Virus record (IMG/VR): IMGVR_UViG_2703718853_000004
Direction: 5' to 3' (one strand)
Source of the DNA: a virus
Taxonomy: Duplodnaviria > Heunggongvirae > Uroviricota > Caudoviricetes
Length of the DNA: 42,889 nucleotides
A model generated the notes under the pieces. That model had not been told where the DNA came from and searched no databases. It was given only the letters and a program-made list of their open reading frames with translations. A program made the position numbers and the translations under genes. The stretch's first letter is position 1; each line of letters opens with the position of its first letter. This document shows, one piece after another, positions 27,182 through 42,889 of the stretch.

Positions 27182-27256
27182 TGGCGGGACAGGAAGGATT
27201 CGAACCTTCTACCATTCGGTTAACAGCCGAACGCACAACCGCTGTGCTTCTGACCC
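27182..27256 (-). tRNA. tRNA-like gene, anticodon GTT (Asn), atypical
   Basis: Hand-folded 75-nt cloverleaf: acceptor GGGTCAG/CTGTCCC (one T-T mismatch), anticodon arm TTCGG-CTGTTAA-CCGAA, T-arm GAAGG-TTCGAAT-CCTTC, 3' GCCA; position 8 is A rather than U. Confidence 0.5.
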
Positions 27257-27260
27257 TGAA

Positions 27261-27292
27261 ATGAAAAAGCCCAAGGCGTTAACCTCGGGCTT
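27261..27292 (-). terminator. Terminator-like hairpin just downstream of the Q gene (tR'-like)
   Basis: Minus-strand imperfect stem (GCCCGAGG/CCTTGGGC) followed by TTTTTCAT. Confidence 0.4.
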
Positions 27293-27359
27293 GAATTCTT
27301 TATGTGTCGACAATCGAAGCTATGGCGACGATATCAGATTTACATGAAATATATGCCTT

Positions 27360-34206: not shown

Positions 34207-34428
34207 TCATGCTTCAAAGTCACCTTTCTCTCCCGGCCTGTTAGAAATCAGGATGGCCAGCAGTAGCGACATGTTCGGCAGCAGACTTTCCCGCCAGCGA
34301 CTCACCGTCGACTTATTCACTCCGGCCACTTTGGCGATATTCGTGGTTCCCAGTTCAGCTATCTGGCTGTGTAACCAGCTTTCTATCCTGCGAGCCTCCA
34401 CTTTGTTGCGTGTCGTTGAACTCTCCAT
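34207..34428 (-). CDS. cII: Transcriptional activator CII
   Basis: RRIESWLHSQIAELGTTNIAKVAGVNKSTVSRWRESLLPNMSLLLAIL parallels lambda CII; located between the cro-like and O-like genes. Confidence 0.7.
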   Translation of the reverse strand: MESSTTRNKVEARRIESWLHSQIAELGTTNIAKVAGVNKSTVSRWRESLLPNMSLLLAILISNRPGEKGDFEA

Positions 34429-34467: not shown

Positions 34468-34698
<231 letters not shown>

Positions 34699-34711: not shown

Positions 34712-34785
34712 ATATACATATTGTATTCTTTTCTTGCAAGGTAAATATACAAATTGTGACTCGAAGAAAGATATACAACTTGTAT
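34712..34785. promoter_or_regulatory. OR-like operator region with three TATACA-NN-TTGTAT palindromes between the cro-like gene and cI
   Basis: ATATACAtaTTGTAT (34712..34726), ATATACAaaTTGT (34745..34757), ATATACAacTTGTAT (34771..34785). Confidence 0.55.
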
Positions 34786-34794
34786 CATTTGGGT

Positions 34795-35454
34795 ATGAGC
34801 ATGAAATGGTATGACCTAGCAAAGTCCCTCATGAAAACGAAGGGCATAAACCAGGAAGAGCTGGCAGAGCATCTCGGGATCACCAAAGGTGCCGTTAGTC
34901 ATTGGCTAAACGCAAGGAGAGAGCCCAGCCTGGAGGACATAGCTAAAATTCTTCGCTTCCTCGGCAAGAATAATTTTTCTGTGGGTGCTGGCGGCATGAT
35001 AATTGATGAAAACATCAAGGGTGATGTTGAGTACGTTGGGCCCTATAAGCGCGGCAACGAATATCCAGTGCTTAGTAGTGTTCAGGCTGGATCGTGGCGA
35101 GAGGCTATAGAACCTTATTCCATCAAAGATGTTGATCTGTGGCTTGAGTCGAATGCACATATCCAAGGGGAAGCGTTCTGGCTGCTTGTTGAAGGCGATT
35201 CCATGACGTCACCAGTCGGGCTAAGCATTCCAGAGGGTACCTACGTTTTGTTTGATACCGGCCGAGAGCCAGTAAATGGCAGCCTTGTGATCGCAAAGCT
35301 ATCCGAATCAAACGAAGCGACATTCAAAAAGCTGATTATTGATGGGGGCCAAAAGTACCTGAAGGGCTTAAACCCTCAATGGCCATTGGTTCCCATCAAC
35401 GGAAACTGTCGAATCATTGGTGTGGCCGTAGAAACTAAGTTAAGGCTTGTGTGA
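34795..35454 (+). CDS. cI: CI-type prophage repressor (N-terminal HTH, C-terminal LexA-like S24 peptidase domain)
   Basis: HTH (EELAEHLGITKGAVSHWLN); C-terminal LVEGDSMTSP and a downstream Lys consistent with a Ser-Lys autocleavage dyad. Start at ATG 34795 (or 34801), not the ORF-track GTG that overlaps the third operator. Confidence 0.75.
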   Translation: MSMKWYDLAKSLMKTKGINQEELAEHLGITKGAVSHWLNARREPSLEDIAKILRFLGKNNFSVGAGGMIIDENIKGDVEYVGPYKRGNEYPVLSSVQAGSWREAIEPYSIKDVDLWLESNAHIQGEAFWLLVEGDSMTSPVGLSIPEGTYVLFDTGREPVNGSLVIAKLSESNEATFKKLIIDGGQKYLKGLNPQWPLVPINGNCRIIGVAVETKLRLV

Positions 35455-35462
35455 TCGGCAGC

Positions 35463-35491
35463 ATGCCGCAGACGTACAGGAAGCATGGGTA
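35463..35491. repeat. 29-bp direct repeat, left copy
   Basis: ATGCCGCAGACGTACAGGAAGCATGGGTA matches 35665..35693 with one mismatch. Confidence 0.5.
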
Positions 35492-35514
35492 AAGCTTTAG
35501 CACGCAGAGGAAGC

Positions 35515-35634
35515 ATGTCTGATCTGATTATCCCAATACTCATTACTTTACTGATTATCGGACTGGTTGGGATAGTGCTCAGGCTGGATAAGATTTTCTT
35601 CAAGCGAAGGGATGAGCGGGATGACTTTGAGTGA
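35515..35634 (+). CDS. Small hydrophobic peptide (39 aa; 49 aa if started at 35485)
   Basis: MSDLIIPILITLLIIGLVGIVLRLDKIFFKRRDERDDFE: one TM helix plus charged tail; AGGAAG SD before the ATG; flanked by the 29-bp direct repeats. Confidence 0.35.
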   Translation: MSDLIIPILITLLIIGLVGIVLRLDKIFFKRRDERDDFE

Positions 35635-35664: not shown

Positions 35665-35693
35665 AATGCCGAAGACGTACAGGAAGCATGGGT
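35665..35693. repeat. 29-bp direct repeat, right copy
   Basis: ATGCCGAAGACGTACAGGAAGCATGGGTA. Confidence 0.5.
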
Positions 35694-35853
35694 AGCCATC
35701 AGCCTATCGAAGCGATTAAGTAATTTTTATGACCACTATCTTTCAAAGGTTGATGCTTAGTGTATGATGAGTTTAAAGCCGTATATGCTTAATTACGTGT
35801 CAGCATATTTTTGTAAGATCCGGTCAGATTGTTCCTTTTTTGAGCAACTCTGG

Positions 35854-35895: not shown

Positions 35896-36261
35896 GTGAC
35901 CCGAAACCCTGGAGATGAATCCGTTGAAGTTTTGCATAAAAGAGCAGTAGCGCGGTTTAACTCTCTTACTTATGCAATCATCGGTGAAATCAGTTCTATG
36001 CTCAGCAAGGCCAAATTATTGCCAATTCCTGAGCTACAGTTGAACAACCCTACATTCGAAGAGGTTGTTTCACAGTTAAGACTTTATCGCGCCCTATCCG
36101 AAAAAGTCGCTGAGTTGTTAAAAATTGATAGGAAAGATGAACTAGCTGAGCTTGACGCGTACATCGAGCTCGCAGATGACTTGGCTCAAGCCATTGTAGC
36201 TGACAATCCTGAAGGGTTGTGCGCCGCCATAGCTGCTTTGGATGAGAAGCCATACGTATAA
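35896..36261 (+). CDS. Hypothetical helical protein (121 aa), moron gene 1
   Basis: GTG start 8 nt after AAGGAG; AT-rich; no recognisable motif. Confidence 0.45.
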   Translation: MTRNPGDESVEVLHKRAVARFNSLTYAIIGEISSMLSKAKLLPIPELQLNNPTFEEVVSQLRLYRALSEKVAELLKIDRKDELAELDAYIELADDLAQAIVADNPEGLCAAIAALDEKPYV

Positions 36262-36278
36262 CAAACGAGGAGCACACG

Positions 36279-36407
36279 ATGGAAAACCGTTACGACTTTG
36301 AGACCGTATTCGCACTGCTGAACGAAATGGAAGCATGCCTGAATAACGTTCGCCGACTGAATGCCCAGTTGGATGAAAGTCTGCGAGCTATTCCACTGGC
36401 AGCTTAA
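36279..36407 (+). CDS. Hypothetical small protein (42 aa), moron gene 2
   Basis: MENRYDFETVFALLNEMEACLNNVRRLNAQLDESLRAIPLAA; GAGGAG SD 6 nt upstream; followed by a terminator. Confidence 0.35.
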   Translation: MENRYDFETVFALLNEMEACLNNVRRLNAQLDESLRAIPLAA

Positions 36408-36438
36408 CATATCAGCAGCTATTAGAAATTCATCCAGA

Positions 36439-36467
36439 CCCGGCGCGGCCCCCGCGCCGGGTTTTTA
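36439..36467 (+). terminator. Rho-independent terminator ending the immunity-region moron
   Basis: CCCGGCGCGG-ccc-CCGCGCCGGG perfect GC stem followed by TTTTT. Confidence 0.7.
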
Positions 36468-36626: not shown

Positions 36627-36830
36627 CTACTCTTCCCTCAGCATCAGCACGTCCAGTGCCAGCTCCACAGTCAGTTCTACCCTGTTTCCCTGCCACAGCA
36701 CCTGAATCATCTCTATCAGCGCCTCTCTTGATGGCTCGCGCTTCTCAACCAGCAGTTGCATAACCGCTATCCCGATAACCTGCGCTATCTGTGGGTGCAT
36801 CTCTGCGAAAAACTCATCCTCATTCGACAT
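36627..36830 (-). CDS. Hypothetical protein (67 aa) transcribed divergently from the OL-like region
   Basis: AGAGGG SD 9 nt upstream; plausible composition; convergent with the cI operon. Confidence 0.4.
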   Translation of the reverse strand: MSNEDEFFAEMHPQIAQVIGIAVMQLLVEKREPSREALIEMIQVLWQGNRVELTVELALDVLMLREE

Positions 36831-36928
36831 GGCGCTACCCTCTTTGGCGTTTTTTTGAGCTTACCAGCACGCTTTACAAAAATAAACCTCCATAAAATAC
36901 AAAATGTTATCTTGAGAAGCAAAAATAA

Positions 36929-36970
36929 GTATACGTATTGTATTGCAAGTAATGAATACGTTTTGTATAT
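36929..36970. promoter_or_regulatory. OL-like operator region
   Basis: GTATACGTATTGTAT and AATACGTTTTGTATAT resemble the OR half-site consensus; AT-rich intergenic region before the early-left operon. Confidence 0.45.
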
Positions 36971-37050
36971 TCACCTCATCCAAACAACACCGGCAACGCC
37001 GGGGTGAAGTCAAAACGTCCCGTTAGCCGCGATAAGGCAAAGGTGAAGAG

Positions 37051-37167
37051 ATGATCCGCGAAGAAGATAAAACTGAGTGGTTTAAGTTTCTGGCACACGC
37101 ATTCGCCATCGTCGTATGCGTACTGATAGCAAGCGCGTTCTGCCTGATGCCTGGTGGTTCAGCATGA
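37051..37167 (+). CDS. Small hydrophobic peptide (38 aa)
   Basis: MIREEDKTEWFKFLAHAFAIVVCVLIASAFCLMPGGSA; ATGA-coupled to the next peptide. Confidence 0.3.
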   Translation: MIREEDKTEWFKFLAHAFAIVVCVLIASAFCLMPGGSA

Positions 37168-37274
37168 GCAGAAATGGCATTCGTTCACTGATTTACTGCC
37201 TGCTGATCTGCGGCGTTATCTGGACAGCGTTGATTATCAAAATTCTGCACGTTACGGGGGTGTTCAATGGTTAG
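37164..37274 (+). CDS. Small hydrophobic peptide (36 aa)
   Basis: MSRNGIRSLIYCLLICGVIWTALIIKILHVTGVFNG; stop overlaps the next ATG. Confidence 0.3.
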   Translation: MSRNGIRSLIYCLLICGVIWTALIIKILHVTGVFNG

Positions 37275-37473
37275 TCATCATTACGGGACACAGACCGTTA
37301 ACCGCGGCGCCGTTCTCCCAGGGATGCTCGTTAAGCATCGGGAAAGCACCTGGACAGCATCAGCAAATAAACGCGGCCGCCTGTACCTGCATCGCGGGAT
37401 TGAGCGGACTTACACAACCGACTTGCTGGTTGAAGTTTATCTGAACGGGTTGGGACAAGGTCTCAGCCGGTAA
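37267..37473 (+). CDS. Hypothetical basic protein (68 aa)
   Basis: GGGGGTG SD upstream; coupled to the preceding peptide. Confidence 0.3.
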   Translation: MVSHHYGTQTVNRGAVLPGMLVKHRESTWTASANKRGRLYLHRGIERTYTTDLLVEVYLNGLGQGLSR

Positions 37474-37554
37474 TCGAAACGAAGAATTTAACTGAACTAT
37501 CAGGCGGCTTTCATCGCGCCGGGGATTCTTACAACCAAATTTCAGGAGCGAGAT

Positions 37555-37839
37555 ATGAACGCATACCGCGCATACGACGCTATCGAAGAACGGAAATGGG
37601 CTGAGCAGTCGCTCACCGAAGAGAAGCAAAAGTGGATTGACGATCGGGCGCAGGAAATTATCGACGCCCTGCCGAAAGAGCCGTCAGGCCTGTTCCGCTT
37701 CTCTGTGCCGATGGACAAAAGCCCATACGAAGGCCTCCGCAGCGATGCAGCTGGCGAGGCATATAACGATCTCATCTCGGCAGTAGCTTACGCCCAGGCG
37801 GAATACGACTGGGATCACCGCACCGGCTGCCCGTTTTAA
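37555..37839 (+). CDS. Hypothetical protein (94 aa)
   Basis: AGGAGCGAGAT then ATG; immediately upstream of recT. Confidence 0.45.
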   Translation: MNAYRAYDAIEERKWAEQSLTEEKQKWIDDRAQEIIDALPKEPSGLFRFSVPMDKSPYEGLRSDAAGEAYNDLISAVAYAQAEYDWDHRTGCPF

Positions 37840-37854
37840 CTTTGGGGAATAGCA

Positions 37855-38700
37855 ATGGCTAACGAACTTGTGATTACAGCCAGCTCTCTTTCTGAGCGAG
37901 GCATTGACGGCGCTACCTGGAGCGCCCTCAAGAACAGTATTTATCCTGGCGCCAAGGATGAGTCGGTGATGATGGCGCTGGACTACTGCCGGGCCAGAAA
38001 CCTTGATCCTCTTCTGAAGCCCGTTCATCTGGTGCCAATGAGCGTTAAGGACTCGAAGTCGGGTAAAAGCGAGTGGCGCGATGTGGTTATGCCGGGCATC
38101 GGGCTTTATCGGATTCAGGCCGATCGCTCCGGTTCTTACGCTGGCGCAAAAGAACCAGAGTTCGGCCCGGACGTCACTCTGACGCTTACCGGTATTGAGG
38201 TGACCGTACCTCAATGGTGCAAGTACACAGTCAGCAAGCGCATGCCGAGCGGGGAGATCGTCGAATTCAGCGCGAAAGAATACTGGGTTGAGAACTATGC
38301 CACCGCCGGCCGCGACACTACCGCGCCAAACGCAATGTGGAAAAAGCGCCCTTACGGCCAGCTGGCGAAGTGTGCCGAGGCTCAGGCTCTGCGTAAGGCG
38401 TGGCCTGAAATTGGCCAGCAGCCCACTGCCGAAGAGATGGAAGGTAAAACACTGGAAGTTGATGCGCGTGACGTAACGCCGCGCAGCACTACCGAGGCGC
38501 TCCCCCTGGTGGCCAGTGAGGAAACGTTGCAGGCAATTACCGACCTCCTGACGTCCCTGAATAAGGACTGGGAGCAGGACTTCCTGCCTCTGTGCAGCAA
38601 CATCTTCAAGCGTGACATTTTCCAGGCATCACAGCTCACCGAAGAAGAAGCGCAGAAAGGCTTTAGCTTCCTCCAGAAAAAAGCGCAGGTGGCAGCATGA
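37855..38700 (+). CDS. recT: RecT-family single-strand annealing recombinase
   Basis: 281 aa; overall sequence character and pairing with a downstream, overlapping exonuclease gene, as in lambdoid recombination modules. Confidence 0.75.
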
Positions 38701-39377
38701 CACCAGAAATTATCCTTGCACGCACTGGCATTGACGTTACCCGCATTGAACAGGGGGATGAATCCTGGCACCGCTTACGCCTCGGCGTGATCACTGCCTC
38801 GGAAGTTCACAACGTCATTTCTAAGCCCAAGTCAGGCAAGAAATGGACTGATATGAAGATGTCCTACTTCCTTACGCTCCTTGCCGAAGTGTGCACCGGC
38901 GTGGCGCCGGAAGTTAACGCCAAGGCGCTGGCCTGGGGGAAACAGTATGAGGCCGACGCTCGCACCCTGTTTGAGTTCACCACCGACGTGCAGGTAACCG
39001 AGTCGCCGATCCTTTTCCGTGACGAAGGTATGCGCACCGCCTGCTCACCAGACGGCCTGTGCAGTGATGGCCGAGGCCTTGAGCTGAAGTGCCCTTTCAC
39101 CTCTCGCGACTTCATGAAATTTCGGCTTGGCGGCTTCGAGGCTATCAAATCCGCCTACATGGCCCAGGTGCAATTCAGCATGTGGGTAACCGGTAAGGAT
39201 GCATGGTATTTCGCGAATTATGACCCTCGCATGAAGCGAGAAGGCATTCACCACGTGGTTGTTGAGCGCGACGACAAATACATGTCCGACTTCAACGAAA
39301 TGGTGCCGGAGTTCATCAGCAAGATGGATGAATCGCTGTCGGAGATCGGTTTCACCTTCGGGGAGCAGTGGAAATGA
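38697..39377 (+). CDS. Phage 5'-3' exonuclease (YqaJ / lambda Exo-like)
   Basis: 226 aa; ATGA-coupled downstream of recT; acidic residues and ELKCP region consistent with PD-(D/E)xK-type nuclease. Confidence 0.7.
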
Positions 39378-39532
39378 AACATTACCGCGACGCCATAACC
39401 GTAGGAAAAGTGAAGTGCATGTACTCCGTCCTTCATCGTGGCTGGCTAATGCCATCTGGTGAAGTGGTAAGAAACCCGTTAAAGGCTCAGCGGATGGCTG
39501 AAGAGCTGGCCACGAAAAGAGGTGCGCAATGA
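39374..39532 (+). CDS. Hypothetical small protein (52 aa)
   Basis: ATGA-coupled between exonuclease and methyltransferase genes. Confidence 0.35.
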
Positions 39533-40056
39533 CTGATTACGGCGGATCGAAAACTCCAAAAAATGAACGTGACTACTGGCAAACACCGATTGAAATTTTC
39601 AATGCGCTCGACCGCGAGTTTGGCTTCTGGCTGGATGCTGCAGCCTCTGAGAGTAATGCGCTATGTGCTCACTACCTCACTGAGCTGGATGACTCGCTGA
39701 ACAGTGAATGGACGTCATACGGGGCAATATGGTGTAACCCGCCCTATTCCGATATTGGGCCGTGGGTGGAAAAGGCAGCCGAGCAATCCCGGGCGCAGTC
39801 TCAGGCCGTCGTGATGTTGTTACCGGCTGACATTTCTACCGGCTGGTTTATTTCAGCCATGCAATCAGCTGATGAACTCAGACTCATAACCGGCGGCCGT
39901 GTTCAGTTTGTTCCGGCATCCGTTACAGGAAAGCGCCGGAGCAACCCCAAAGGCTCGCTTCTGTTTATCTGGCGTCCGTACATCACCCCGCGACACATCA
40001 TCACGACTGTATCGCTGGCTGAGTTAAAGCGGATCGGGAATCTGGAGGCTGCATGA
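39529..40056 (+). CDS. DNA N6-adenine methyltransferase (phage Dam-like, orphan)
   Basis: 175 aa; NPPY catalytic motif in IWCNPPYSD; no adjacent restriction endonuclease gene. Confidence 0.75.
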   Translation: MTDYGGSKTPKNERDYWQTPIEIFNALDREFGFWLDAAASESNALCAHYLTELDDSLNSEWTSYGAIWCNPPYSDIGPWVEKAAEQSRAQSQAVVMLLPADISTGWFISAMQSADELRLITGGRVQFVPASVTGKRRSNPKGSLLFIWRPYITPRHIITTVSLAELKRIGNLEAA

Positions 40057-40196
40057 CGCCAGAAGAAAAAGAAAACGCTCTCCGCGCCCAGGCTCGTCGC
40101 TGCGCAGAAGAGATAACCAAAGCGATGAGCGTAAAGCCTAAACCGAAGTGGAACGCTGTATGCCCCCCATCCTTCGCAAGCACTACGAGAAGGTAA
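40053..40196 (+). CDS. Hypothetical small protein (47 aa), possibly the 5' part of a frameshifted gene
   Basis: ATGA-coupled to the methyltransferase; overlaps the next ORF by 37 nt at a C6 homopolymer (40163..40168). Confidence 0.3.
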   Translation: MTPEEKENALRAQARRCAEEITKAMSVKPKPKWNAVCPPSFASTTRR

Positions 40197-40273
40197 AGCC
40201 GATGGGTGTCAGCCTGGTGAAATTTGTCAGTGTTATTGGCCGCATGAATGGGCGGTATGGAGTGGAATCATGA
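40160..40273 (+). CDS. Hypothetical small protein (37 aa), possibly the 3' part of a frameshifted gene
   Basis: Starts at the C6 tract; ATGA-coupled to the downstream gene. Confidence 0.25.
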   Translation: MPPILRKHYEKVKPMGVSLVKFVSVIGRMNGRYGVES

Positions 40274-40470
40274 GCAAGTATCCAAGAGTCGGCAGTGTTG
40301 CTGCCAAAAGCAAAAATACCTCTGCCAGATGCAAATGCGGTGCAGTTGCGAAGTTTAAAACCACGGTTGAAGTAAATGTTTTCCGTGGTGATGACGAAGT
40401 GGTCTGGACTTGTAACGAGCACAAAAAAGACTGCTCATTTTTAGTCGGCGGGCAAGGCGGTGCTGTATGA
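40270..40470 (+). CDS. Hypothetical Cys-containing small protein (66 aa)
   Basis: CKCG...CNEH pattern suggests a metal-binding ribbon; coupled to neighbours. Confidence 0.4.
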   Translation: MSKYPRVGSVAAKSKNTSARCKCGAVAKFKTTVEVNVFRGDDEVVWTCNEHKKDCSFLVGGQGGAV

Positions 40471-41123
40471 AAGAACGCGGAATGATTTTTAACGGGGAGA
40501 TGGTGCGGGCCATTCTCGACGGACGGAAGACGCAGACGCGGCGCCCGGTAAAGTTTCCGGTTTTAGATAAAAACCTTGGGTGCGAGCTGGCTGGCAATGA
40601 ACTGGCTGGGGAGCTGTCGGCAGGCAACTATCTGAACAGCGCATTTGGTAAACCAGGCGATCGAGTTTGGGTGCGCGAGACGTGGGGAGTCGTCAGTCAC
40701 GAACTTGATGAGTATGGTCGAATCCAACCATGGACGCCAAACCGACCTGCTACAGCCATTCACGAAATGCCGTTTGGCAATGGCTATTACTCTGGCCACG
40801 CCATTTATGCAGCTGATGGTGATTTTACCTGGGGTGATGACGATGGTTATGAAGATGGCCGTTCGTGCTGGAGGCCATCCATTCATATGCCGAAAGCAGC
40901 CAGCCGCATTCTGCTGGAAATCACCGACGTGCGCGTTGAGCGCCTACGCAGCATGAGCCAGGACGATGCACGCGCCGAGGGTGTTATTGCCGCATCTGGC
41001 CCTATGGAAGCCGGTTTAGCATTCCGCGAGCTGTGGGACTCAATCTACGGCGAGGAGAGCTGGAAAGCCAACCCCTGGGTTTGGGTTATCGAGTTCAAGC
41101 GAGTTGAAGGCGGTGCAGCATGA
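40467..41123 (+). CDS. ASCH/PUA-like domain phage protein (218 aa)
   Basis: N-terminal MIFNGEMVRAILDGRKTQTRRP resembles the conserved start of ASCH-domain prophage proteins (recalled, not searched). Confidence 0.45.
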   Translation: MKERGMIFNGEMVRAILDGRKTQTRRPVKFPVLDKNLGCELAGNELAGELSAGNYLNSAFGKPGDRVWVRETWGVVSHELDEYGRIQPWTPNRPATAIHEMPFGNGYYSGHAIYAADGDFTWGDDDGYEDGRSCWRPSIHMPKAASRILLEITDVRVERLRSMSQDDARAEGVIAASGPMEAGLAFRELWDSIYGEESWKANPWVWVIEFKRVEGGAA

Positions 41124-41338
41124 GCGCAAAACTCATCGATCAGGCTAACGAGCTGGCAGAGCGCCGGCTGGAAATGACCATCCATAACATGCGCATCAAC
41201 CATGCTGCAGTTTCAGCTACCCACTGCCGCGACTGCGGGGAAGAGATACCCGAGCGGCGCCGGGAACTGGTGGCGGGCTGCCAGCGCTGCGCTGACTGTC
41301 AGGAAGAGTTTGAAGAACGTGGCAAGCACCAGAGGTGA
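41120..41338 (+). CDS. TraR/DksA-family C4 zinc-finger protein
   Basis: 72 aa with CRDCGEEIP...CQRCADCQ four-Cys motif. Confidence 0.65.
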   Translation: MSAKLIDQANELAERRLEMTIHNMRINHAAVSATHCRDCGEEIPERRRELVAGCQRCADCQEEFEERGKHQR

Positions 41339-41341
41339 TGC

Positions 41342-41587
41342 ATGCAGACAATAATCCAGATCGAGCCAAACGAATGGGTTTCAGAGGACTTGCTGATGGC
41401 AGTCACAGGTATGAAGCGCGGTACCATTACACGGGCCCGCAAATCATCCTGGCTGCTTGGGCGTGAGTATAAGCACGTTTCCCCTGAAGGTGACCCAAAG
41501 CCAACCAGCGAATGCATGTACAACCGCAAAGCGGTAGACGCATGGATTCAGGCTCAAAAGCAACCATTGGGTGATCGGGCGGTATGA
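41342..41587 (+). CDS. Excisionase-like DNA-binding protein
   Basis: 81 aa ORF immediately upstream of the integrase gene. Confidence 0.5.
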   Translation: MQTIIQIEPNEWVSEDLLMAVTGMKRGTITRARKSSWLLGREYKHVSPEGDPKPTSECMYNRKAVDAWIQAQKQPLGDRAV

Positions 41588-41629
41588 AACAGGTAAGCTT
41601 ACACCGCTCCTGGACGTCGGGAGGGAACA

Positions 41630-42889
41630 ATGAGTAAAGAATCATACCCAACGGGCGTTGAGAACCACGGAAAATCACTCCGCATATGGTTCATTTTTAA
41701 AGGCAAGCGTGTCAGGGAAAATCTCGGTGTCCCTGACACCGCTAAAAACAGGAAGGTGGCCGGGGAACTGCGAACGTCAGTTTGTTTCGCTATCCGCATG
41801 GGGACCTTTGACTATGCTGCGCAATTCCCCAATTCGCCAAACCTGAAAACTTTCGGCATCTGCAAGAAAGAGATCACCGTGAAATTTCTGTCTGAAAAAT
41901 GGCTGGAGCTGAAACGGATGGAGATCTGCGCTAATGCCATAAACCGGTATGAATCGGTTGTCAGAAGCATGCTGCCGAGGATCGGCGCGAAAAAGCTGGT
42001 TTCGTGTGTGACAAGGGAAGAACTGCTGTATATCAGGAAGGATATGCTGTCGGGGGAGAAAGGGTTGAGCGTGGTAACGGTAAACTACTACATGTCCACG
42101 ATAGCGGGGATGTTTCAGTTTGCTGTTGATAATGGCTATGTGAGTGAAAACCCGTTTAACGGCATCAAGCCGCTAAAGAGGGCCAGGATAGAACCAGATC
42201 CGCTCACACGTGATGAATTCGTTCGCTTCATTGATGCCTGCAAGCATCAGCAAACGAAAAACCTGTGGTCAATTGCGGTATACACAGGATTACGTCACGG
42301 TGAGCTGGTCTCCCTCGCATGGGAAGATATAGATCTGAAAGCTGGAACGATGACCATACGCCGGAATTATACGAAACTCGGTGATTTCACTCTACCAAAA
42401 ACCGAAGCTGGTACCGACAGGGTCGTGCACCTGATCAAGCCTGCCATCGACGCTTTGAGGAACCAGGCAGAAATGACCAGGCTGGGAAGGCAGTATCAGA
42501 TTGAGGTGGCATTGCGGGAGTATGGCCGAACGGTTATTCACGACTGTACATTTGTGTTCAATCCTCAGTTGGTTAAAAAAAGTGGCAGCGTGGGTTACCT
42601 GTACAAAGCCGATTCAGTGGGTGACTCATGGGATGCGGCGCTTAAACGGTCAGGTTTAAGGCACCGGAAGGCGTATCAGTCGAGACACACTTACGCCTGC
42701 TGGTCGCTGTCTGCCGGGGCCAATCCGAGTTTCATTGCCAGCCAGATGGGACACGCCAGCGCCCAGATGGTTTTCAATGTTTACGGCGCCTGGATGGCCG
42801 ACAGCAGCAGCGATCAGATTGCCATGTTGAACCAGAAATTATCGGACTTTGCCCCATCCATGCCCCATGGCATGGTGATAGGAATATGA
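41630..42889 (+). CDS. int: Tyrosine integrase (phage integrase family)
   Basis: 419 aa; C-terminal catalytic-domain features (TGLRHGEL, HxxR-like SRHTYAC, terminal Tyr region); last gene at the prophage end, downstream of the excisionase-like gene. Confidence 0.85.
   Translation: MSKESYPTGVENHGKSLRIWFIFKGKRVRENLGVPDTAKNRKVAGELRTSVCFAIRMGTFDYAAQFPNSPNLKTFGICKKEITVKFLSEKWLELKRMEICANAINRYESVVRSMLPRIGAKKLVSCVTREELLYIRKDMLSGEKGLSVVTVNYYMSTIAGMFQFAVDNGYVSENPFNGIKPLKRARIEPDPLTRDEFVRFIDACKHQQTKNLWSIAVYTGLRHGELVSLAWEDIDLKAGTMTIRRNYTKLGDFTLPKTEAGTDRVVHLIKPAIDALRNQAEMTRLGRQYQIEVALREYGRTVIHDCTFVFNPQLVKKSGSVGYLYKADSVGDSWDAALKRSGLRHRKAYQSRHTYACWSLSAGANPSFIASQMGHASAQMVFNVYGAWMADSSSDQIAMLNQKLSDFAPSMPHGMVIGI
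42836..42869. repeat. Right copy of imperfect direct repeat with tandem ATGCCCCA motifs, inside the int 3' end
   Basis: TGCCCCATCCATGCCCCA at 42852..42869 versus 211..228. Confidence 0.4.

Follow-up and report, generated by a model that had tools for sequence, protein, structure and literature searches.

Phage interference with bacterial cytokinesis is usually illustrated by Kil-type proteins, which have been studied as stand-alone cytoplasmic peptides. KilR of the Rac prophage causes filamentation and loss of the Z-ring at low dose, effects that extra FtsZ suppresses, and at high dose it causes rounding, with the organisation of MreB disrupted or mislocalised (PMC12482147). Here we describe a kil locus in a 42,889-nt stretch of tailed-phage DNA (IMG/VR record IMGVR_UViG_2703718853_000004; "the window" below is this whole stretch, with positions counted from its first letter). 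A KilR-type gene is the last of three overlapping small open reading frames (ORFs) at 37051-37473, all on the + strand and all found where the initial annotation had placed them. The kil gene is already named, and the two small genes before it (ORF1 and ORF2) are listed in GenBank, annotated as hypothetical or as membrane proteins. Undescribed in the literature we searched is that ORF1 and ORF2 make up a narrow family under selection, always coupled to Kil-type genes that are interchangeable.

The kil gene of the window resembles those for Rac KilR and P22-type Kil in product size, basic charge, the HH(Y/F)GT motif and a place ahead of the recombination genes. Unlike it, Rac KilR is preceded by a long 5' untranslated region (UTR) and the kilS small RNA, with no membrane peptides, and the activity of the Klebsiella-type protein, unlike that of Rac KilR, is a prediction from homology. 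In lambda (cIII-kil-gam-bet-exo), as in the window, a small gene overlaps the start of kil, by 32 nt for cIII and by 8 nt for ORF2, and genes for Gam, an annealing protein and an exonuclease follow. Lambda Kil (47 aa) is unrelated to the Kil of the window, and in relatives of the window ORF1 and ORF2 front a lambda-type Kil (PF06301). Lambda carries N, ral, sieB and ea10 between the left promoter (PL) and cIII, whereas in the window the cassette comes right after PL.

The same overlapping trio follows the repressor and PL region of Klebsiella phage Mulock (MN098327) at ~96% nucleotide identity. There the genes CPT_Mulock_044, 043 and 042 are annotated 'putative membrane protein' (the counterpart of ORF1), 'hypothetical protein' and 'cell division inhibitor protein', with no function given for the two small ones. 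Mulock differs from the window in its immunity region and in having a gene of 323 aa that separates kil from gamL. The window is a lambdoid prophage of Klebsiella type; its closest database relatives are Klebsiella phages (Mulock, RCIP0114, and the LV-2017 and ST-series prophages), with 84-97% nucleotide identity around the locus. The host of this particular copy is not assignable, because five complete E. coli chromosomes carry an identical 441 bases of the locus (100% identity). The three genes, with the isoelectric points (pI) of the two small products, are as follows.

37051..37167, + strand: ORF1, 38 aa, MIREEDKTEWFKFLAHAFAIVVCVLIASAFCLMPGGSA; predicted single-pass membrane peptide, pI 5.5
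37164..37274, + strand: ORF2, 36 aa, MSRNGIRSLIYCLLICGVIWTALIIKILHVTGVFNG; predicted single-pass membrane peptide, pI 9.5
37267..37473, + strand: kil (ORF3), 68 aa, KilR/P22-type cell-division inhibitor by homology; start 8 nt inside ORF2

Kil and the two peptides ahead of it

By homology, ORF3 is a Kil division inhibitor of the KilR/P22 type. Its product matches phrog_294, 'Kil protein for bacterial septation inhibition' (E 5.2e-34, residues 1-67 on profile positions 13-79 of 83), is 39% identical to Rac KilR over 61 residues (BLASTP, E 7e-16) and begins with the same MxxHH(Y/F)GT. Against NF008465, the NCBIfam model of Rac KilR, it scores 67.8 bits (E 6e-19) with a cut-off of 92 bits, which places it within the KilR family but outside the Rac subfamily. 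No Pfam family, and thus not that of lambda Kil (PF06301, with a helix-turn-helix core), matches it at E up to 0.1; all 113 of its 113 database homologues carry the precomputed Pfam assignment PF27398. The protein is hydrophilic (pI 10.3) with no hydrophobic segment, and its size (~66-73 aa across the family), basic charge and early-left place upstream of gam and the recombination genes are those of the family. An AlphaFold2 (AF2) model is a six-strand beta-barrel with predicted local distance difference test scores (pLDDT) of 90-94; the last 8 residues average 67. In this family a flexible C-terminal tail beyond the folded core is required for toxicity, and the tail here is shorter than that of Rac KilR. 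The ratio of nonsynonymous to synonymous polymorphism (pN/pS) is 0.02 in frame and 5-29 off frame. Identical sequences occur on at least 1,000 public contigs under the name 'cell division inhibitor protein', and Mulock and RefSeq E. coli genomes carry the same annotation. The initial annotation had expected a kil-like function here, which is borne out, but had sought it in the hydrophobic peptides and left the actual Kil as an anonymous 'basic protein'. The mechanism of KilR probably carries over to ORF3 with the homology.

The description of ORF1 and ORF2 as tandem peptides with a single transmembrane (TM) segment fits the sequence, in that each has one hydrophobic window (Kyte-Doolittle mean over 19 residues of 2.56 for ORF1 and 2.42 for ORF2). 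ORF1 has an acidic N-terminus, MIREEDK, and a TM segment at about residues 13-33, and ORF2 a basic N-terminus, MSRNGIRSL, and a TM segment at about residues 9-29. The longest frame for ORF2 in the ORF listing runs 52 aa from the ATG at 37116, and the conserved start is the ATG at 37164. ORF1 and ORF2 overlap by the 4 nt ATGA, and ORF2 and ORF3 by the 8 nt ATGGTTAG. Purine runs resembling Shine-Dalgarno sequences lie 4-6 nt before each ATG (AAGGTGA at 37040-46, GGTGG at 37153-57 and GGGGGTG at 37256-62).

Related loci for comparison were gathered from IMG/VR, a phage database and GTDB species genomes. Among them ORF1 has 48 distinct protein alleles in length classes of 35, 36 and 38 aa, with a conserved N-terminus, MIRE(E/H)(D/E), one conserved tryptophan and a TM segment that is variable yet always hydrophobic. 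Its pN/pS is 0.11-0.48 in frame in each class and segment, and 0.58-3.2 in the other two frames. ORF2 has 92 distinct nucleotide alleles of 36 codons, all free of stops, at 181 of 183 loci, and a 33-codon allele at the other two. Codons 2-9 (S-K/R-N/Q-G-I-R-S-L) have a pN/pS of 0.18, compared with 2.9 and 1.1 off frame, and the GIRSL codons show synonymous changes. The TM core of ORF2 is almost neutral per residue (pN/pS 0.79), its second codon position varies least, and its mean hydropathy is at least 1.98 in all alleles as against 0.2 and -0.5 in the other frames, even though ORF2 allele classes are only 36-50% identical to one another. The conserved C-terminus of ORF2 (G-V-F-N/H-G) is uninformative about the peptide, because the same bases supply the following gene with its Shine-Dalgarno sequence and ATG.

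These comparative data, with purifying selection and retained hydrophobicity, rather than the open frames by themselves, are the grounds on which we judge ORF1 and ORF2 to be real, selected genes. Both are short, ORF1 is missed by the Prokaryotic Genome Annotation Pipeline (PGAP) in some genomes, and both are absent from profile databases, as might be expected of chance open frames in a conserved untranslated kil leader. That explanation is nevertheless highly improbable: purifying selection is specific to the coding frame, none of the 48 ORF1 and 92 ORF2 alleles has a stop or a frameshift, the Shine-Dalgarno sequences are correctly spaced and hydrophobicity is preserved. The only other open frame, a 96-aa ORF in the third frame at 37154-37444, was considered as a gene and rejected as an open by-product: hydrophobic NTN codons are unable to give stops in the +2 frame, and the off-frame pN/pS over kil is the 5-29 given above.

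The exact ORF1 sequence occurs on 57 contigs and that of ORF2, which PGAP annotates as WP_032429701.1, on at least 999. A natural in-frame fusion of ORF1 and ORF2 is found on at least 24 contigs (for example protein P0001, locus L193 801-1016) and is caused by one extra base in a G8A4 run. Its AF2 model is a two-helix hairpin (helices at residues 6-33 and 38-65, pLDDT 70). Many other ORF1-ORF2 'fusions' in the databases (62-76 aa) are frameshifts or over-extended gene calls.

Coupling and distribution of the cassette

In 156 distinct 0.9-kb neighbourhoods, the ATG located 8 nt before the ORF2 stop always opens one of three genes. It is a KilR-type Kil in 83, a lambda-Kil-type PF06301 gene in 56 and phrog_3722 in 17, proportions that mean little, as the sampling is biased by the queries used; the all-or-none pattern is independent of that bias. 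The lambda-type genes encode 92-97 aa and match PF06301 above its gathering score, and the 97-aa versions that replace kil in relatives score 30-40.5 bits against a cut-off of 27.6 bits. The phrog_3722 product is 64 aa, MA(K/N)xIPNNGRAVMMRN...NLVPAGTH (for example at L095 2604-2798 and L193 1009-1203). ORF1 is present in 135 of the 156 neighbourhoods, and the overlaps, ATGA and then -8 nt, are invariant in all 156. Since ORF2 allele classes are common to the downstream types, with VIALAIG seen beside all three, ORF2 is the fixed element, and it is the gene after it that is exchanged.

All 30 ORF2 records in the phage database are Klebsiella phages, and they include all 15 Klebsiella records with phrog_3722 and all 6 with a lambda-type Kil. 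The phrog_3722 gene also occurs without ORF2 in one Citrobacter phage and one Salmonella phage. A distant relationship between phrog_3722 and KilR was considered and set aside, as the profiles are unrelated (hhalign probability 2.4%). By position, and because the ORF1/ORF2 family is invariably coupled to interchangeable Kil-type genes, phrog_3722 is a candidate Kil-like gene and potentially a third inhibitor. For ORF1 and ORF2 themselves, the invariant coupling makes a role in division or envelope takeover plausible but unproven.

The invariance of the overlaps could also be read in terms of translation. ORF1 and ORF2 would then be translated leader cistrons that bring ribosomes to the kil start and set the dose of a toxic product, with the peptides having little function. 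The coincidence of the conserved ORF2 C-terminus with the downstream Shine-Dalgarno sequence and ATG is in keeping with this, as is the near-neutral TM core, and the window contains a local hairpin in which the kil Shine-Dalgarno sequence and AUG are paired and the loop holds the ORF2 stop. The hairpin is not significant (z = -1.3), however, and is absent from the lambda-Kil and phrog_3722 versions. A spacer needs neither purifying selection on the ORF2 N-terminus and all of ORF1 nor retained hydrophobicity; moreover, kil has its own good Shine-Dalgarno sequence, and homologous kil genes elsewhere work without such leaders. We consider it quite unlikely that the peptides are leader cistrons of this kind.

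The distribution searches used queries that were concatenated or aligned. In 185,579 genomes representing species, five cassette loci were found, all in Klebsiella or Raoultella, and of 5,426 complete E. coli genomes 58 carry part of the cassette and 7 all of it. Neither ORF1 nor ORF2 matches a Pfam-A, PHROG, NCBIfam, PADLOC or PDB family; the sub-threshold scores to LptF_LptG (14 bits), UL2 (16 bits) and phrog_32729 (E 0.0045) are attributable to chance. A HMMER profile scan of 1.84 billion representative proteins returned 30 clusters only, all obvious close variants of ORF1 or ORF2, and across these searches remote homology yielded nothing beyond the close family. We found no paper on the peptides. 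The suggestion that small membrane peptides at this position are often host-killing or division-inhibiting thus finds no homologue of known function and no publication to lean on in the case of ORF1 and ORF2.

KilR-type Kil proteins without ORF1 or ORF2 occur in phages of E. coli (HK225, phi80, Stx phages and Rac), Salmonella, Enterobacter and Cronobacter, and in several of these a soluble phrog_6396 protein is coupled to kil instead. A search for recurrent membrane proteins beside KilR-type kil in other genera found none, except for a two-TM ORF in phi80. This unannotated ORF (JX871397, locus L084 1629-1838) encodes 69 aa, lies between N and kil, matches phrog_25975 at E 1e-50 and overlaps the annotated rho-dependent terminator tL1B.

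So restricted a host range, in genomes, protein clusters and E. coli chromosomes alike, suggests a host-specific target, and rapid evolution of the TM core would fit an arms race. The peptides could accordingly be independent membrane-active early proteins unrelated to Kil: weakly depolarising or toxin-like, superinfection-excluding, or inhibitors of a Klebsiella-specific envelope function. Many small membrane toxins and exclusion proteins are likewise of this size, with one TM segment and a charged N-terminus. Set against this, they match no known toxin or exclusion family in PADLOC, Pfam or PHROG, they lie under a repressed PL and so would be silent in the lysogen, where exclusion proteins are usually made, and independence from Kil leaves it unexplained that ORF2 never lacks an overlapping gene of one of the three types. 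On balance we think this explanation unlikely.

The early-left operon and its leader

The position of the trio can be described from the predicted control elements and genes around it.

36931..36968, + strand: OL operators, two 13-bp sites, ATACGTATTGTAT (36931-36943) and ATACGTTTTGTAT (36956-36968)
36943..36971, + strand: PL promoter, TTGCAA-17 nt-TATATT (promoter scan); the -10 hexamer overlaps the second operator
36978..37050, + strand: leader of the PL transcript, ~73 nt, holding CCGTTAGCCGCGATAAGGC (37020-37038) and the ORF1 Shine-Dalgarno AAGGTGA (37040-37046)
34756-35454: cI-type repressor (S24 peptidase and helix-turn-helix)
34468-34686, strand opposite to the cI-type repressor: cro-like gene
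34207-34428, strand opposite to the cI-type repressor: CII-like gene, phrog_3638 (E 1.5e-48)
37555-37839, + strand: gamL, NF033500 GamL (E 6e-42)
37855-38700, + strand: recT/bet-like annealing protein, PF03837 RecT
38697-39377, + strand: exonuclease, PF09588 YqaJ

Exact matches to the 13-bp operator motif ATACNNNTTGTAT occur in the window only at 34714, 34773, 36931 and 36956, and at up to one mismatch there are 10 matches where 1.5 are expected by chance. Two of the four exact sites lie in the cI/cro intergenic region and two overlap the promoter at 36943-36971. Repeat families D2, I1 and I10 also link the two regions, and the clusters are, as predicted from these repeats, OR and OL. Hexamers identical to those of PL lie on the - strand at 34739-34711, beside cI/cro, and mark the presumed PR (promoter scan). 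Between the PL -10 hexamer and ORF1 (~73 nt) there is no ORF with a plausible start, which makes ORF1, ORF2 and kil the first genes of the early-left operon; their assignment downstream of OL and at the head of this operon therefore agrees with what the initial annotation proposed. The order is PL-ORF1-ORF2-kil-gamL-recT-exo, and 3' of the exonuclease come a methylase, small genes without assigned function, a DksA-like zinc-finger protein, xis and int.

In related phages with different immunity regions, similarity to the window begins at ~36971, and the element CCGTTAGCCGCGATAAGGC is conserved 5' of ORF1. The leader is conserved among Klebsiella and Raoultella phages, and its 3' part directly precedes kil in the E. 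coli phage HK225. Because the element CCGTT(A/C)GCCGCGATAAGGC stands directly before kil in HK225 and before ORF1 in the window, ORF1 and ORF2 look like an insertion between leader and kil, or like the product of a deletion in the coliphage. Long-range pairing of GCCGCGATAAGG with kil codons 11-14, CCGCGGCG, was considered as the reason for conservation (HK225, z = -2.3) and rejected, since the element is also kept where the downstream gene is not of the KilR type. The fold of the leader is not significant (z = -0.01) and it has no Rfam match.

No N or cIII family matches the leftward-operon ORFs from ORF1 to xis (PHROG scan, integrase gene excluded), nor was an N-type protein found between PL and the recombination genes with Pfam, PHROG and NCBIfam, in agreement with the remark that no obvious N-like antiterminator is present. 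With no such protein, no Rfam match and no significant fold, an N-like antiterminator or a nut/put RNA in the leader was rejected. A scan of 36900-42889 found no convincing intrinsic terminator on the + strand; it covers intrinsic terminators, and rho-dependent termination cannot be judged from it.

A different, structured leader of ~150 nt lies upstream of the ORF1-ORF2-kil region in relatives with a lambda-type Kil (L085 1715-1885 and L094 1975-2160), and in L094 a 74-aa ORF stands between it and ORF1. This leader is homologous to the Rac kilR 5' UTR between kilS and kilR (L086 3231-3400, - strand) and shows apparently compensatory changes in a stem (CCTGG/CCAGG and CCGGG/CCCGG). It has no Rfam family and no match to HK022, and is absent from the window.

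Several further small features lie in the immunity region and beyond. Just 3' of cI, at 35485-35634 (+ strand), is a 49-aa ORF (39 aa from its second ATG) whose product has one TM segment (MSDLIIPILITLLIIGLVGIVLRLDK...). Direct repeats of 29 nt, 97% identical, lie on either side (35463-35491 and 35666-35694) and contain a motif resembling a Shine-Dalgarno sequence plus ATG, AGGAAGCATGG; the product could be a small membrane protein expressed in the lysogen. Between cI and PL, at 35896-36462 (+ strand), are a 121-aa gene (phrog_13858) and a 42-aa gene (phrog_12503), followed by a terminator with a perfect 11-bp stem at 36438-36462. These two genes sit where lambda has rexAB, both also occur in E. 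coli strain Ec1117, and they are possibly a moron transcribed with cI. Divergent from PL is a 67-aa gene at 36627-36830 (- strand; phrog_3946), which HK225_042, beside the PL of HK225, resembles in size and orientation. In the late region, adjoining Rfam matches above the gathering score at 27185-27344 (- strand) comprise a tRNA (27185-27256) and an isrJ-like Hfq-binding RNA (27266-27344).

The gene order invites a comparison with CIII, a small FtsH inhibitor. ORF2 sits exactly where cIII does in lambda, whose cIII overlaps kil ahead of gam-bet-exo, and the window encodes a CII-like activator (phrog_3638) and has no cIII match in the scanned leftward ORFs. ORF1 and ORF2 might therefore be functional analogues of CIII that modulate FtsH/HflKC, stabilise CII and tune the choice between lysis and lysogeny, with the link to kil being inherited gene order. 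On the other side, lambda CIII is a soluble or amphipathic protein of 54 aa that acts via an amphipathic helix, not a TM segment, and is dissimilar to ORF1 and ORF2, which match no cIII family in Pfam, PHROG or NCBIfam at E up to 0.1. The E. coli relative HK225 has the same Kil without ORF1 and ORF2 (leaving its own cIII status aside), and a hypervariable TM core is unexpected for a peptide that binds a specific protease. Membrane peptides that alter FtsH-dependent degradation do exist: MgtR and MgtS, hydrophobic peptides of 30-31 aa, act on membrane proteins and on such degradation (PMC12648545). They provide a model for a CIII analogue, but are chromosomal stress regulators, not phage-borne, and dissimilar to ORF1 and ORF2. 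Overall, a CIII-like function is in our estimation a slim prospect.

Possible roles of the membrane peptides

Our preferred explanation, which we hold tentatively and would call possible rather than probable, is that the three genes form a coupled host-takeover cassette that opens the PL operon, with the peptides as the membrane arm of a takeover of division or the envelope. Once CI repression is lifted, the PL transcript would carry ORF1, ORF2 and kil as its first three cistrons, each with its own Shine-Dalgarno sequence and with translation coupled through the overlaps (ATGA, then 8 nt). The predicted kil product, a soluble, basic, small beta-barrel of the KilR/P22-Kil family, would block formation of the FtsZ ring and, at higher dose, MreB-dependent elongation, as its kinship with Rac KilR suggests. 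ORF1 would insert in the inner membrane with its N-terminus out and ORF2 with its N-terminus in, and the two antiparallel segments would probably pair as a helical hairpin. This pairing is suggested by the charge distribution, with an acidic N-terminus in ORF1 and a basic one in ORF2, and by the natural in-frame fusion. In the least certain step, the peptides would act on membrane-embedded components of division, elongation or the envelope, or alternatively would place and dose Kil synthesis at the membrane via coupled translation. A membrane role of this kind is suggested by the invariable overlap of ORF2 with one of three interchangeable genes, two of which belong to known families of FtsZ inhibitors.

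If the peptides do act on the divisome, there are analogues. Tiny inner-membrane proteins such as SidA and DidA of Caulobacter and YneA of Bacillus are produced when needed and stop division through late, membrane-embedded division proteins, and gp56 of phage SPO1 is reportedly a small single-pass membrane inhibitor of the divisome. None has a sequence relationship to ORF1 or ORF2, and each works by itself, with no cytoplasmic FtsZ inhibitor coupled to it.

Several observations weigh against a takeover cassette. No function is tied to ORF1 or ORF2 by experiment or by a homologue. Where a gene lies in a mosaic operon says little, since recombination between lambdoid modules takes place at gene borders; the 3' end of ORF2, conserved and doubling as the Shine-Dalgarno sequence and start codon for the gene after it, could be nothing more than a recombination joint. 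All three downstream families, KilR-type, lambda-type and phrog_3722, occur without ORF1 and ORF2 in phages of E. coli, Salmonella, Enterobacter, Cronobacter, Citrobacter and Serratia, so Kil does not need the peptides. ORF2 alleles show no co-variation with the downstream family, which disfavours a specific physical complex with Kil. As set out above, selection on the TM core of ORF2 is near-neutral and the ribosome-binding site of the following gene confounds what can be read from the conserved ORF2 C-terminus. The fusion allele, arising from a G8A4 homopolymer, may be a single lineage or a defect.

A more specific form of the cassette explanation, which we regard as doubtful, makes ORF2, usually with ORF1, a dedicated membrane partner of phage division inhibitors in a two-compartment 'kil cassette'. 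If so, the antiparallel TM pair would hit membrane proteins of division or elongation, or localise Kil synthesis, and the exchangeable cytoplasmic inhibitor would hit FtsZ. As a corollary, phrog_3722 would be a previously unrecognised Kil-type inhibitor.

The locus is ordinary and already annotated, with one modestly new association: it varies a known module and does not introduce a different type of system. Across a large set of clinically relevant Klebsiella prophages, the Kil gene is without exception the third cistron in a coupled unit begun by one or two conserved membrane peptides, and the same peptides front two unrelated families of FtsZ inhibitors and a third gene, phrog_3722. Should the peptides be merely leader cistrons or cIII-like modulators, nothing would set the locus apart, and the Kil gene is known and annotated either way. 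Should they aid the arrest of division or of the envelope, they would represent a membrane arm of phage takeover, indicate new small-peptide targets in Klebsiella and put phrog_3722 forward as a new inhibitor family.

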